41,293 nucleotides of DNA, taken from contig JABCTC010000030.1 of assembly GCA_018238545.1 (NCBI GenBank), forward strand, positions 1 through 41,293, given 5' to 3'. Position 1 is the stretch's first letter; every line of letters begins with the position of its first letter. Below are positions 190-16,379 of this stretch, in pieces. The translations under genes were made by a program, and so were the position numbers. The DNA comes from Candidatus Heimdallarchaeota archaeon (GTDB lineage: Archaea; Asgardarchaeota; Heimdallarchaeia; Heimdallarchaeales; Heimdallarchaeaceae). Below the pieces are notes generated by a model. The model did not search any database. It was not told where the DNA came from and saw only the letters and a program-made list of their open reading frames with translations.

Positions 190-678
190 TTGGTGTATAA
201 ATTGCCAGATGATGTTTTTATTTTAGATAAAAGTGGACTACCATATTATAGCAAATGCTTTGGGGGAGAAACATGTAAAATGAGACCAGATCATTCTTTA
301 CAGACAGGATTTTTAGCAGCACTATATGCTTTTTCAAAAGAATCATATGGACAACAAGAAATTAGAACAGTAGTGTTCAATGACATGAAATTGCATTTCA
401 AAACTGATCAAGAAAAAGATATCATAGTTGTGTTTACGTCACCATTGAGTGAAAAAGAGGAAGTAGTTGAGGGACAAATGGATATGACTTTAAGAGCTTT
501 CCTCGAAAATCATAATGATGATATAGGTAGAGGATATGTTGATGCAGACAAATTTACAGGATTTGATCAAATATTACAAGACATAGGAGTAGTAAAAACA
601 AAACCTATGGGAATGATAAATCTAGGAGAAAAAGTGGGTTTGTGGAAGAGAATCTTTAGAAGATATAAACACAAATGA
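190..678 (+). CDS. longin-like domain protein (Asgard eukaryotic-signature type)
   Basis: FILDKSGLPYYS...LQTGFLAALYAFSKE...IRTVVFNDMKLHF matches the longin/roadblock-like strand-helix pattern. Confidence 0.65.
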   Translation: MVYKLPDDVFILDKSGLPYYSKCFGGETCKMRPDHSLQTGFLAALYAFSKESYGQQEIRTVVFNDMKLHFKTDQEKDIIVVFTSPLSEKEEVVEGQMDMTLRAFLENHNDDIGRGYVDADKFTGFDQILQDIGVVKTKPMGMINLGEKVGLWKRIFRRYKHK

Positions 679-822
679 TTTTTCACTTTTACACTTCCTT
701 AAACTTCTCTTCTGCAATTAGTAAAAATTCCAATCTTTCTTCTTCCTACTATATTTATTGACCATTGTAAATTTTTGGAAAATCTGCAAAATCCTTAAAA
801 ATTTGCTTGTCTTTAGTTTAAT

Positions 823-2110: not shown

Positions 2111-2773
2111 CTATATCCTCCCTTTCTTCTTGGATTTCATTTTTCTAGGCATAGAAGCAGCAGCTCCTGTCATGTCATCTCCTGGATCTTTAGGATAGGG
2201 AGTAAGCGCCAAACCGTCGCTACTACCATAGAAGCTACTTACAATCTTTAGTAATGTCTTGAATGCTTCATCAACGTTTTCTCCTGTTTTTGCAGAAGTT
2301 TCAATATAAGGAACAGAAAAGCCGGACCATTGCGATAGAGAACGGGCATATTCTTCAGATTGTTCTCGCATAATAGGATCTTTAGCTATCGCTCGAAGGT
2401 CACTTTTATTACCAATTAATACCATTGGAACAACTCTATTACTATTGTTCTTAAGAAGTTCTGCAATCCATGATGGAATATTTTCGAAACTAGAACGGTG
2501 AGAAATGTCAAAAACAAGAAGGCAACCAGAAGTTCCTCGATAGTAAACCTCACGGACTGCTGAGAAGCGTTGTTGGCCTTCTAAATCCCAAATCTGAGCA
2601 ACGAAATCTTGATAATTAATTTGAAGTCGTTGTACAGCAAAATCTGCTCCGATTGTCATGGAGTAGCCGTCTTTGAACCCTTCCCCTAGATAGTTCTTAC
2701 GCAAAGAAGTTTTACCAACATCTCCATCTCCCAACAAAGTTATTTTGAATATTTTCCTTTGACCCGCTGCCAT
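2111..2773 (-). CDS. Rab-like small GTPase with C-terminal tag
   Basis: G1 GDGDVGKT, TIGADF, WDLEGQQRF, YYRG, NKSD, ETSAK; close paralog of 15813..16379. Confidence 0.95.
   Translation of the reverse strand: MAAGQRKIFKITLLGDGDVGKTSLRKNYLGEGFKDGYSMTIGADFAVQRLQINYQDFVAQIWDLEGQQRFSAVREVYYRGTSGCLLVFDISHRSSFENIPSWIAELLKNNSNRVVPMVLIGNKSDLRAIAKDPIMREQSEEYARSLSQWSGFSVPYIETSAKTGENVDEAFKTLLKIVSSFYGSSDGLALTPYPKDPGDDMTGAAASMPRKMKSKKKGRI
2141..2206 (-). repeat. shared C-terminal tag, copy 1 (LTPYPKDPGDDMTGAAASMPRK)
   Basis: 18 of 22 aa identical to copy 2 at 2838..2903. Confidence 0.9.
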
Positions 2774-2813
2774 TCTGTTTTTCCCTTCATGAAATGCTTA
2801 TCTATTGTTCTTC

Positions 2814-4250
2814 TTATTCTTCTTTTGTGTTCTTATATCTTCTAGCCATACCTGCTGCTGCACCCGTCATATCGTCACCAGGATCTTTAGGGAAAGGAGT
2901 GAGAGTTTTATCTGATGAGTGGAAACGACTTTTGATAGGAATAATTAATGTGCTGGGGGAATAGCGTTTAATGACTCTAAAAATTTCAGTTCTATTTTTT
3001 AGATGACGACACAAGTGAATGAAATCTGTGTGAAAAATTGAAAGATAAGAAAACCATTTTTTCTTCCAAAAAGACTTTTTTACCTTGTAAGTAATTATGA
3101 AAGGAATTTTGGTATAAAGCTTATAGGGCTCATGTTTAGAAATCAAAAAAAGTTGTACCATTTCAAGATTTTCAACGAATAATCCTGGTTGAATAATCCT
3201 TTCTTCAATTAATCTTGATTTAGTTCTAAAGAGTGTTCTAGCCGAAATATCATGTGTTTTTAATATATTATCAATACTAGGTTTCTTAAAATCCATTTCA
3301 CAGTTTCGTAAAAGATGAGTAACAGCTGATGAATCTTGATTAGGATAAGAAGTTTTCATGGATGAAATTAGTTGTCTATTTTTGGTGATTCTATACCTAA
3401 AGTTCTTTAAACTTTGAATTCCTTTTCCTATTCGTGAATAGGTTTTCCAGTTCAATACTCTTTGTGACTTAGGTGTATTATTCTCCCAATTTTCTATTGA
3501 TATTCCTTGAATCAATATTTCTGAATTAAAAATCAATCTCTTATCCTTTACATAATAATATTCTGAATCCTTTTCTTTTTCTTGTTTTATTCCATGGATA
3601 AATGTCGTTGTATCAATGAGTGATGATTTTTCAGGAAAAAGAAGGAAATAGTCAATTAGAACAGATTGATTATCTTTGTTTATTAATTTATTAATTGCAA
3701 AGAATTCGTGAAGATTTAAACGGGAATAATCTATGAAGCTTCCAAGATAAACTCTCTTCTTCTTTAGATTTTTGAGTAAAATACTAATTTCTTTTTCTGA
3801 AACTCCTAGTTTTTCTGCTAAATCTTTGAATAATGAGCTAGGATTATTACTGAGTTCTTTTATTATTTGCTTCTCTAAATCTGAGAAATGTAGACCTAAC
3901 ATTTTCGTAAAATAATCAAGAACATCTTCCAAAATCATCTCTCTTGCATAAATTAGATCATGAAATGCTTTTAATTCACTCCAAAAATTGTCAATCTCAG
4001 AAAATTCCCAGAATTCATTTCTGTCTAATTCGGAGTCATTGAAGAAGTATTTGACGAAGAAATCAGTAATATCTATTTTTAGATTTGAAGTGAACTTTGG
4101 GAAAAAATCACGAAAAATATTAGTAGTTCTAGCTTTCGAATATTGTTGTATGTTTAAAGAAAACTCATCTGGTGAAATCCTTCCTTCTAATAGGTCACTA
4201 ACTGGGGCAGGTTTCGTAGATGTTGAACTATCAAAGTTACTATCGTTCAT
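2814..4250 (-). CDS. winged-HTH (Lrp/AsnC-like) regulator with two HTH motifs
   Basis: LEKQIIKELSNNPSSLFKDLAEKLGVSEKEI and KPSIDNILKTHDISARTLFRTKSRLIEERII. Confidence 0.7.
   Translation of the reverse strand: MNDSNFDSSTSTKPAPVSDLLEGRISPDEFSLNIQQYSKARTTNIFRDFFPKFTSNLKIDITDFFVKYFFNDSELDRNEFWEFSEIDNFWSELKAFHDLIYAREMILEDVLDYFTKMLGLHFSDLEKQIIKELSNNPSSLFKDLAEKLGVSEKEISILLKNLKKKRVYLGSFIDYSRLNLHEFFAINKLINKDNQSVLIDYFLLFPEKSSLIDTTTFIHGIKQEKEKDSEYYYVKDKRLIFNSEILIQGISIENWENNTPKSQRVLNWKTYSRIGKGIQSLKNFRYRITKNRQLISSMKTSYPNQDSSAVTHLLRNCEMDFKKPSIDNILKTHDISARTLFRTKSRLIEERIIQPGLFVENLEMVQLFLISKHEPYKLYTKIPFIITYKVKKSFWKKKWFSYLSIFHTDFIHLCRHLKNRTEIFRVIKRYSPSTLIIPIKSRFHSSDKTLTPFPKDPGDDMTGAAAGMARRYKNTKEE
2838..2903 (-). 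repeat. shared C-terminal tag, copy 2 (LTPFPKDPGDDMTGAAAGMARR)
   Basis: 18 of 22 aa identical to copy 1. Confidence 0.9.
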
Positions 4251-4490: not shown

Positions 4491-5864
4491 TTATGGTGTG
4501 GTTGCAGTTGTGTTTCCATTTGATACGTGTTTGTATAGATATGATCCATTAGTGCCGTTACCGTTACCATTGGTTCCATATTCAGGAGCAACACCATTGG
4601 CCATTTTGACATCTCCGAATTTGTTATTCTTGAGTTTTTCATCAATACTTTCTAGTGTTTTATTAAGGATGAAATCTTCGTCAACTTTCCAGTATTTTGT
4701 AGCCATATTCATATTATCAAGCTGGAATGGATAATACATACCATGTTTTCCAAAGAAGTCTAATGAACAAATTTGATAATCTTTGAAAGTGTGCCAAATA
4801 ATATAATTTAGTTTGGTGTCTAAATAGGGAGGAATGGTGAATCTAAGGAATATGCCGTTATTTAAGAGCTCAAAGCCTGTTTGAAATGGTGGAGTTTCTT
4901 CATGTAGAAGTCTAAATAACTGAGCTTTATCCTTGTTTGGTACGTTCTTGATGATATATGCTCTAGAGACATGTTGTTCAAACAATTTTCTACTGAAATT
5001 CCATCTGGGGTTAGTGATAAGATGGTGTCTAACAACATTATAGTATTTACGACCAAAGTCTACTTTGATATGATGTTCATTACGTGTATCAAAGAACTCT
5101 CGTAGGTTTTCAAAGATGAGAGACTCTTTTTCAGTAAGGCTAATCTTCTTTCCTAGATGCATGTAGTGCTTTCTGTAGTGGTTGATCAAAGTGGTTTGTT
5201 TGGTTCTAATTCCTATGTCATCACCGTTCTTAAAGTGAGTTGTAAGATCCTGTAACAATAGATAATGTAGTGGCTCAAGGCTGTCAAGATTTACAGCTGA
5301 TGGAAGTCTAGGTAAATCTTCTGCCTTCTGCTTTCTACTTTCCCAGAAACCTACAATATCGTATATTTCAGGTTCTTTAGTGTATCTGGGTAAAGGTTCA
5401 GGCTTTCTAACTCTGTATCCTGTAGCTTTGTCAACCTCATAGCTGTCGCAGTATTCTTGTTCAACCAAATGATCAAGAAACTTCAAGAGTAAAGGTTTAG
5501 TTTCTTCAGGCATGTCGAAATTCGCTACCATACCAAATTTTTCTCCATAGAATCGATTGTAGCTTCTTATGTAGTCAAAAGAAGAAAATGCCATCTGAAG
5601 GAGAGTGTATTGGTGTAGTGAAGAAATATCGAAAGTTACTAAGAAACGAGTGAGTTGTAGTCTTTCAGGAACAAAGGAAGCTAAAGGTACAGAGAGTATG
5701 TCTCGCTTTTTGAGAGAGTTAACCCTTCGAATCAATGTCTGTGTAGATGTTCCCAATTTCTCAGCCATAGTGGAATATGGCTCTAACGGATAGTTCTGCA
5801 AAACCAATAAGATTTTTCTATCTAGCGGGTTTAATTGATCTATTTTTATGTCTGTTTTTTCCAT
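4491..5864 (-). CDS. Lrp/AsnC-family winged-HTH regulator, extended/duplicated architecture
   Basis: N-terminal LNPLDRKILLVLQNYPLEPYSTMAEKLGTSTQTLIRRVNSL, a RAM-like segment, and a second degenerate LEPLHYLLLQDL unit. Confidence 0.8.
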   Translation of the reverse strand: MEKTDIKIDQLNPLDRKILLVLQNYPLEPYSTMAEKLGTSTQTLIRRVNSLKKRDILSVPLASFVPERLQLTRFLVTFDISSLHQYTLLQMAFSSFDYIRSYNRFYGEKFGMVANFDMPEETKPLLLKFLDHLVEQEYCDSYEVDKATGYRVRKPEPLPRYTKEPEIYDIVGFWESRKQKAEDLPRLPSAVNLDSLEPLHYLLLQDLTTHFKNGDDIGIRTKQTTLINHYRKHYMHLGKKISLTEKESLIFENLREFFDTRNEHHIKVDFGRKYYNVVRHHLITNPRWNFSRKLFEQHVSRAYIIKNVPNKDKAQLFRLLHEETPPFQTGFELLNNGIFLRFTIPPYLDTKLNYIIWHTFKDYQICSLDFFGKHGMYYPFQLDNMNMATKYWKVDEDFILNKTLESIDEKLKNNKFGDVKMANGVAPEYGTNGNGNGTNGSYLYKHVSNGNTTATTP

Positions 5865-6237: not shown

Positions 6238-6546
6238 TTAAGTGTATATGCCACCTATTGGTTCATCAGGAAATCCACCTGTTGGATCCTTAAATAAACC
6301 GCCAATTGGCTCGTCTGGAAATCCGCCTGTTGGATCCTCTTTAAACAAACCACCTATTGGTTCGTCTGGAAATCCGCCTGTTGGATCTTCTCGTAGATCA
6401 AAGGTGTAATCAGTGCAATGCACTCCCTTATGATCTGACATTTCTATTACTAATTTCCCGGTAGGTGCGTTTAGAGCGATTGAGCTCGCAACAACAGCTA
6501 CGAAACTTATTACAAAGATAACCCCAAATATTTTTTTCGCTTTCAT
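6238..6546 (-). CDS. secreted tandem-repeat peptide precursor
   Basis: Sec-type signal peptide (MKAKK + hydrophobic + ALNA), short pro-region, three (E)DPTGGFPDEPIGG cores with synonymous differences; GGTGG SD-like site upstream. Confidence 0.85.
   Translation of the reverse strand: MKAKKIFGVIFVISFVAVVASSIALNAPTGKLVIEMSDHKGVHCTDYTFDLREDPTGGFPDEPIGGLFKEDPTGGFPDEPIGGLFKDPTGGFPDEPIGGIYT
6241..6390 (-). repeat. three coding tandem repeats of about 48-51 bp
   Basis: EDPTGGFPDEPIGGLFK / EDPTGGFPDEPIGGLFK / DPTGGFPDEPIGGIYT. Confidence 0.95.
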
Positions 6547-6593: not shown

Positions 6594-6625
6594 TACTATT
6601 TAAGATTTGTTACAATTTTCCATTT
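6594..6625 (-). promoter_or_regulatory. putative archaeal promoter of the peptide gene
   Basis: minus-strand CTTAAATA TATA-like box about 50 nt upstream of the ATG, with A-rich sequence upstream. Confidence 0.4.
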
Positions 6626-6679
6626 TCTAGCCTTTTTTGGAAAATAATCACAAACACATGCCTTACCAAAGGCTCAACT

Positions 6680-6712
6680 CTTTATGTATTCCTTTATGTA
6701 TGACTTTATGTC
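6680..6712. promoter_or_regulatory. CTTTATGT x3 at 12-bp period, candidate operator array
   Basis: copies start at 6680, 6692 and 6704. Confidence 0.45.
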
Positions 6713-6906
6713 GGAAAAACGTTTTACTTAGATAAACGCTTGAAATGTAAGGCAACATGTGTTGCGGTTTACATATTGTCAGAACTAAGAGCTATATGCT
6801 AGCAATATGTGGGTAATACTGCACACAGAAATAATGCCCCTCCAAAAATATTTATTATGATTTTTGTTTGAAAAAAAAGAAAAAGGTTTTGTAATTGAAG
6901 CTTATT

Positions 6907-15812: not shown

Positions 15813-16379
15813 TTATTTCATACTTTCTAAAGTCAAACTTTCAAAGTAACTAGAAATATTTTCAGCAAGAATACTAAAAACTTTATCAACGTTAAGACCA
15901 GTTTTAGCAGAAGTTTCTAGGTAAGGAACGTAAAATCCAGACCACTCAGAAAGTTGGTCAGCGTACTCTTGAGCATATTCCATAGGAACAGAATATGGAG
16001 TAGATTCGCGCAAATCAGCTTTGTTACCTATTAGTACTATTGGAACTATGCGGTTTTTGTTGTTACGAACTAGTTCATGCAACCAATTAGGGAGAACCTC
16101 ATAAGTCTCTGGACGAGAAATATCAAAAATTAAAAGTGCTCCAGCTGTTCCACGATAGTAAACTTCACGGACTGCAGAGAACCTTTGTTGGCCTGCTAAA
16201 TCCCAAATTTGTAAAGTGTATTCAACCTGATTAAGAGCCATTTTTTTAACTGCAAAATCTGCCCCAATTGTCATCATGTACCCTTCCTTGAAGCTTTCAC
16301 CTAGATATATTCTACGAAGGGAAGTTTTACCAACTGCTCCTTCTCCCAGCAGGGAGATTTTGAAAATTCTTTGGCTCAC
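15813..16379 (-). CDS. Rab-like small GTPase (canonical motifs)
   Basis: GEGAVGKT, TIGADF, WDLAGQQRF, NKAD, ETSAK; likely GTG start at 16379 after GGTGAT. Confidence 0.95.
   Translation of the reverse strand: MSQRIFKISLLGEGAVGKTSLRRIYLGESFKEGYMMTIGADFAVKKMALNQVEYTLQIWDLAGQQRFSAVREVYYRGTAGALLIFDISRPETYEVLPNWLHELVRNNKNRIVPIVLIGNKADLRESTPYSVPMEYAQEYADQLSEWSGFYVPYLETSAKTGLNVDKVFSILAENISSYFESLTLESMK

Follow-up and report, generated by a model that had tools for sequence, protein, structure and literature searches.

Short linear docking motifs in disordered tails, such as the C-terminal peptide of SSB, the PIP box and HbYX, are conserved at the residue level and occur on unrelated proteins. Modules shared by neighbouring unrelated proteins are also known as the effector-associated domains (EADs) of NTP-dependent conflict systems, which lie in variable loci that also encode GTPases and repeat proteins, are typically N-terminal and tied to MoxR-vWA or GAP1-type systems, and whose repetition was proposed to couple their carriers (Kaur et al. 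2020, PMC7159879). Eukaryotic Rabs carry a hypervariable region with prenylated cysteines after the G domain. Asgard Rab-like GTPases were reported to be without this C-terminal extension, and how their paralogs are distinguished and localised is open (PMC4915359, PMC10933270).

In this study, we analysed a C-terminal tail found on a Rab-like GTPase and on an adjacent, unrelated helix-turn-helix (HTH) regulator in a contig of Candidatus Heimdallarchaeota archaeon; the whole stretch of 41,293 nucleotides is called the window. Like the docking motifs, the tail is short, predicted to be disordered, conserved in its residues and present on unrelated proteins, whereas at about 20 residues it is longer than most of them and it is confined to part of one uncultured genus. 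As with EADs, it is a module that recurs on unrelated neighbours in variable loci where GTPases and repeat proteins are encoded, and a second copy was found on the product of the adjacent gene in the window and in the metagenome loci L103 and L105. Unlike EADs, it is a probably disordered C-terminal peptide, and no MoxR-vWA or GAP1-type core was found among the island genes.

Table 1. Features of the tagged island and its borders (positions in the window).
Feature	Position	Strand	Remarks
Conserved longin/roadblock-like gene, border of variable segment	190..678	+	Piece of 3' end duplicated at several inserts
Variable insertion segment	683..4309	.	Homology to relatives ends at about 682 and restarts at about 4310
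Zinc-ribbon protein inside variable segment	823..1353	+	No second copy in genome
Second Rab-like GTPase, untagged, inside variable segment	1358..2104	-	Diverged paralog of G000:C114:49014-49568, 41% over 188 aa
Rab-like small GTPase, tagged	2111..2773	-	Pfam Ras; young duplicate of G000:C71:8625-9194; A18D (P-loop), A65E (G3)
Tail motif on Rab-like GTPase	2141..2206	-	Type A in its front half, type B from Ala-Ser-Met onward
Tandem Lrp/AsnC-like (NirDL-type fold) protein, N-terminal helical domain	2814..4250	-	Pfam HTH_24 / AsnC
Tail motif on tandem Lrp/AsnC-like protein	2838..2903	-	Type A
Conserved AsnC/Lrp-type regulator, other border	4491..5864	-	Untagged

The initial annotation had described the same tail on these two neighbours, and this was confirmed by a codon-by-codon comparison. 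The two C-termini have a common stretch of 22 residues, 18 of which are identical and four replaced, and 11 of the 18 codons for identical residues are synonymous variants. When 21 codons were compared, 11 of 14 synonymous sites differed as against 8 of 49 replacement sites (Fisher p=3e-5). Among the 2,723 ORFs of at least 150 aa in the genome, the pair took third place for C-terminal similarity on unrelated bodies (E 2e-14), and the remaining top-ranked pairs resembled small folded domains such as zinc ribbons. These two are the only tail copies in the window genome (G000). The GTPase paralog at 15813 indeed lacks the tail, as had been noted, and G000:C71:8625-9194 was found to be a closer comparator.

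The profile scan of Asgard proteomes that had been proposed earlier yielded further carriers. HMM searches covered 82 genomes of the class, 300 of the phylum and two protein sets (1.84 billion representatives and 5.8 billion proteins), and about 25 copies were found; all those with a taxonomic placement belong to one Heimdallarchaeia genus, several metagenome matches carry no taxonomy, and no real placed copy was detected outside the genus in any of these sets. The tail is an undescribed family with two related types, A and B. Type A reads aromatic-Pro, Asp-Pro-Gly-Asp-Asp-Met, Gly-Ala-Ala-Ala and Met-Pro/Ala-Arg-Arg, and was found in the window and in the metagenome loci L103, L104, L105, L111, L114 and L116; L103 has four copies, one of them internal and without the basic half. 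Type B reads Gly-Asp-Pro-Pro-Asp-Ser-Pro-Ala-Ser-Met-Pro-Arg-Lys-Leu-Lys, and was found in the genomes G008, G015 and G019 and on several metagenome proteins, its carriers being HEAT and TPR-like proteins, winged-helix proteins, ORFs of 65-90 residues and two different ABC half-transporters. The two profiles matched at 93% (E 3e-7), with the mosaic tail of the window Rab included in the type A alignment; the front halves differ considerably. Four type B carriers (L088 at about 6615-6810, P0015, P0003 and P0004) have a common short helix upstream of the tail, and two of them, with only 65-70 residues, could represent an ancestral adaptor form.

Taken over both types, the carriers are mutually unrelated: Rab-like duplicates, Lrp/AsnC duplicates, HEAT/TPR-like proteins, small ORFs and ABC half-transporters. 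Both tagged half-transporters have orthologs without the tail; for one subunit it is present in one of 23 orthologs, where the insert is positioned ahead of the native end. The earlier proposal would have been refuted by absence of the motif from orthologs and from all other proteins; the single-copy host orthologs do lack it, whereas other proteins are tagged. Four of the 24 species representatives of the genus carry the tail, in genomes 72-92% complete, and no copy was seen in the other 20. Since, furthermore, no conserved native carrier was found in the 82 class genomes or the 300 phylum genomes, the function of the tail is accessory.

No description of the tail was found in the literature, and Pfam and PDB sequence searches with it gave no match. 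The Atlas search gave only unnamed short clusters at 0.90, the related-loci search with the regulator as the query gave nothing, and exact DNA patterns revealed no true additional type A copy in metagenome, viral and order-level genomes. Several matches were rejected. CRISPR-like arrays called as proteins (P0017, P0023 and P0024) are false hits whose translation spells the Ala-Ser-Met-Pro-Arg-Lys part by chance; TPR proteins and a phage protein outside the genus, as well as an internal stretch of a dehydrogenase, were also chance matches, and further matches outside the genus were off-frame. A tail on a MurG-like fragment (P0025) looks like an assembly chimera and was left out of the carriers. 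At L115 1-330, bacterial ftsW-murG-like sequence is joined to the tail, probably as an assembly chimera.

The tail is under purifying selection on its residues, not on its bases. The pooled pN/pS was 0.19 over the 12 copies of type A, 0.17 over the 9 of type B and 0.11 for the 15-codon core of type A, although pN is biased downward somewhat, the copies having been collected by protein similarity. About half of the synonymous sites differ (pS about 0.5) while the residues are fixed, including a Ser that switches between codon families, and no RNA fold signal was obtained in six RNA tests. The claim of a portable motif under selection at the protein level was therefore upheld, with unrelated carriers in related species. 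A mobile DNA repeat (MITE/REP-like) read in frame was rejected on the basis of the same pS and the lack of a fold signal.

These values also bear on the idea that the tail is functionless, a recombination scar or the constant end of a cassette that hitchhikes with shuffled genes. Its patchy distribution and its position at cassette junctions fit such a scar, some carriers look like fragments, and the 3' end of type B overlaps the repeated DNA leader of HEAT cassettes. However, the fixed residues amid diverged synonymous sites, that is, the pN/pS, largely refute it; the two G000 copies differ at 19 of 63 nucleotides, among the largest differences of all copies and the opposite of what a patch of DNA homology requires; and the alternative reading frames are full of stops. 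A scar is accordingly very unlikely. The acidic end of type B lies outside the motif: it is translated from the promoter-like DNA leader, purine-rich and TATA-like, that is found ahead of tagged and untagged HEAT cassettes alike.

The HEAT-repeat cassettes themselves (L183-L187 in G011, L064-L066, L117, L119 and G000:C103:26531-26758) have in common this leader of about 45 bp and an N-terminal helix. They are inserted at scattered sites, often near toxin-antitoxin-type or Rab-like genes, and resemble mobile cassettes.

The tagged Rab is 92% identical (89% in nucleotides) to its untagged counterpart G000:C71:8625-9194, which is conserved across the genus and nearly invariant. In the tree, the tagged Rabs of the window, L103, L105 and L114 form a clade (100/99) nested among untagged host orthologs, and those of L104 and L116 branch separately on long branches, giving up to three tagged lineages. 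The dN/dS was 0.09-0.32 in the four-copy clade versus 0.00-0.02 for the host gene. The two substitutions of the window Rab listed in Table 1 correspond to Ras G13 and A59, positions at which changes of this kind accelerate nucleotide exchange; by this analogy, the window Rab may have an altered nucleotide cycle. Of the 36 nucleotides compared in the 3' half of its tail, 28-32 agreed with most type B copies and 18-23 with type A copies, and an HMM built from type B only found this tail with an E of 0.002. The window Rab tail is an A/B mosaic, and the type B DNA in its 3' half indicates that tails exchange between lineages.

The initial annotation had pointed out that the tail sits where eukaryotic Rabs carry their targeting tail. 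As in those Rabs, it is placed after the last helix of the G domain, its carrier is a typical archaeal Rab-like GTPase, and a basic patch is present, strongest on the window Rab (8 basic and 3 acidic residues). On these grounds, one could envisage that the tail targets membranes much as the lipid-modified one of eukaryotic Rabs does. However, no Cys was found in any of the 23 copies checked and the net charge of most is near zero; the eukaryotic region is hypervariable, whereas the tail is conserved; the majority of carriers are proteins other than GTPases; and the tagged Rabs arose by recent duplication, nest among untagged orthologs and are limited to part of one genus. The reports on archaeal Rab-like proteins without this region also speak against it (PMC4915359, PMC10933270). 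The suggested link is unsupported, membrane targeting of this kind is exceedingly improbable, and the tail is no precursor of its eukaryotic counterpart.

The regulator, for which the best Foldseek matches were NirDL and AsnC/Lrp, is a diverged duplicate of an untagged, family-wide gene (G000:C86:33387-34709), with about 45% to the host copies. In a quick version of the tree, it formed a long branch within the host genes of the G000 clade; the type A regulator copies grouped with these host genes, and a type B HEAT fusion grouped with the host gene of G015. This fusion is derived from the regulator gene of G015 itself, and its type B tail is an independent recruitment. At L064 29-3025 (G015:C116), in the neighbourhood that also holds the window island, HEAT repeats, the N-terminal helical domain of the regulator and the N-terminal half of the same Rab-like GTPase are fused.

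In relatives, the insertion site is empty in G021 and holds a gene for a secreted binding-protein-like product in G016 and G002. Zero to four tagged genes were found there: the Rab only in L114, the regulator only in L111, both in L105 and the window, and four in L103. In other species, a type B small ORF and the HEAT-regulator-Rab fusion adjoin a conserved gene of the window neighbourhood. The window and L105 aligned at 88% from the regulator tail through the Rab, and the window regulator tail is nearest in DNA to that of L105 (7 of 63 differences), while the protein bodies are far apart; the tail therefore stayed constant, and the cargo ahead of it was either exchanged or diverged rapidly. 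The tail is portable and is exchanged by recombination. Duplicates or pieces of host genes come to lie in front of a tail that is already present, for the most part at a single insertion hotspot; the breakpoints fall immediately before the motif, tail halves are also swapped between types A and B, and on two occasions the tail was added to an ABC half-transporter gene.

Further observations concern the borders of the site. Several inserts are edged by a second copy of the 3' end of the longin-like gene, as at an integration site (window 550-690 compared with L103, L105, L111 and L179); Atlas look-alikes of this gene, with Fuz_longin_1 on 22% of one cluster, give a lead only. On the other side, a small secreted protein with three tandem cores of 13-17 residues (6238-6546, minus strand) is encoded upstream of the untagged AsnC/Lrp-type regulator. 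The pair, which resembles a pheromone precursor and its receptor, was seen in the window, L103, L114, L180, L181 and L182 and is conserved in several species with species-specific cores. At G000:C56, where AsnC paralogs are likewise preceded by secreted proteins, these proteins have similar Asp-Pro-Pro-Gly-Gly ends. A link between the tail and this pair was rejected, the pair being conserved in species without a tagged gene at the site.

With regard to the function, the structure models had a pLDDT below 50 over residues 184-220 of the Rab and 433-478 of the regulator; both were built from shallow alignments, so that these values are merely suggestive of disorder, and the tail is likely to be disordered. 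The motif is followed by 0-14 variable residues, and the internal front-half copy indicates that it need not be the chain end. Because the tail is conserved, probably disordered and portable with variable ends, we regard it, with close to an even chance of being right, as a short linear motif, situated in a disordered extension of the C-terminus, that is read by a putative host protein for docking or recruitment. The motif starts with a Pro/Gly/Asp segment, which is followed by small residues and then by Met-Pro-Arg with a few basic residues; a host protein would read it, and any carrier would thereby be brought to that partner. A Rab-like switch, a regulator and HEAT solenoids, each present as accessory copies, might in this way gain a common docking handle for the same partner or site. 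Against docking, types A and B are rather dissimilar in their front halves for a single binding site, and HEAT cassettes and the tail do not strictly co-occur: G011 has nine cassettes without the tail, and G008 has the tail without cassettes. The cassettes are often adjacent to the tail, yet a role as its obligate reader is not supported by this co-occurrence. Complex prediction for the tail and the neighbouring longin-like protein gave a score of 0.01, which is no evidence either way.

Rather than a docking site, the tail might be a degron or another signal for the control of proteolysis, by which a protease or unfoldase keeps extra, mutated copies of dosage-sensitive proteins low. A disordered stretch near the C-terminus would suit this role, as would the fact that many of the carriers are duplicated, fragmentary or altered, the Rab with its P-loop and G3 changes among them. 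However, conservation does not extend to the final residues, since type A copies end variably and the acidic end of type B is only translated leader DNA; this makes a degron read from the end unlikely and is compatible with an internal one. In addition, the tagged ABC subunit has retained the tail in its native operon in several samples and a second species. A degron is unlikely on balance, and docking, which we consider more likely than degradation, is the best reading.

A modification or cleavage site was also considered, namely Ser/Thr-Pro phosphorylation or self-cleavage at Asp-Pro, since Thr-Pro or Ser-Pro and Asp-Pro are present in most copies. Asp-Pro is, however, missing from several copies of both types, so that the cleavage suggested earlier is unlikely, and no Ser or Thr is invariant across the two types; such a site is on the whole very improbable. 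The proline-rich composition close to the stop codon, the Pro-Pro of type B and the Rab-like gene that closely follows each tagged gene in the window would all be expected of a ribosome-arrest or translational-coupling peptide controlling the next gene. Six of the 12 terminal type A copies, however, are followed by a convergent gene or a remnant, there is no hairpin to be opened, and type A has no Pro-Pro. Hence, the control of translation by the nascent peptide, which the initial annotation had listed, is unlikely, and we give an arrest or coupling peptide very little weight.

A second tail was observed in Promethearchaeia-labelled genomes. This Loki-type proline tail with a zinc ribbon is found on Roadblock proteins, Rab-like GTPases, fusions of both and other bodies (L156 860-6449, with three in a row, L157-L163, L121 and L122), and no description of it was found in the papers searched. 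It is likewise portable and C-terminal, with a similar order of aromatic-Pro, Pro-Gly/Asp-Asp, small, basic and acidic residues; however, it ends in a zinc ribbon, whereas the Heimdall tail has no Cys, and the hhalign match of the two profiles had a probability of 1-4%. From its sequence, the Loki-type tail looks analogous to the Heimdall tail.

In conclusion, a recently duplicated Rab has gained a selected, portable tail that it has in common with unrelated proteins, and this gain can be traced across close relatives. A peptide of 20 residues is an inexpensive bait with which to look for the reader. A wider reading, which we put forward as a long shot, is that Asgard lineages repeatedly invent portable peptide address labels, grafted onto duplicated Rab-like GTPases, regulators and solenoids in variable islands, that would wire modules to one hub without lipid anchors, the Heimdall and Loki-type tails each being one version of a sorting or assembly code that is read by proteins. 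If this were true, they would offer a living model of the way in which Rab paralogs might acquire separate addresses when prenylation did not yet exist.
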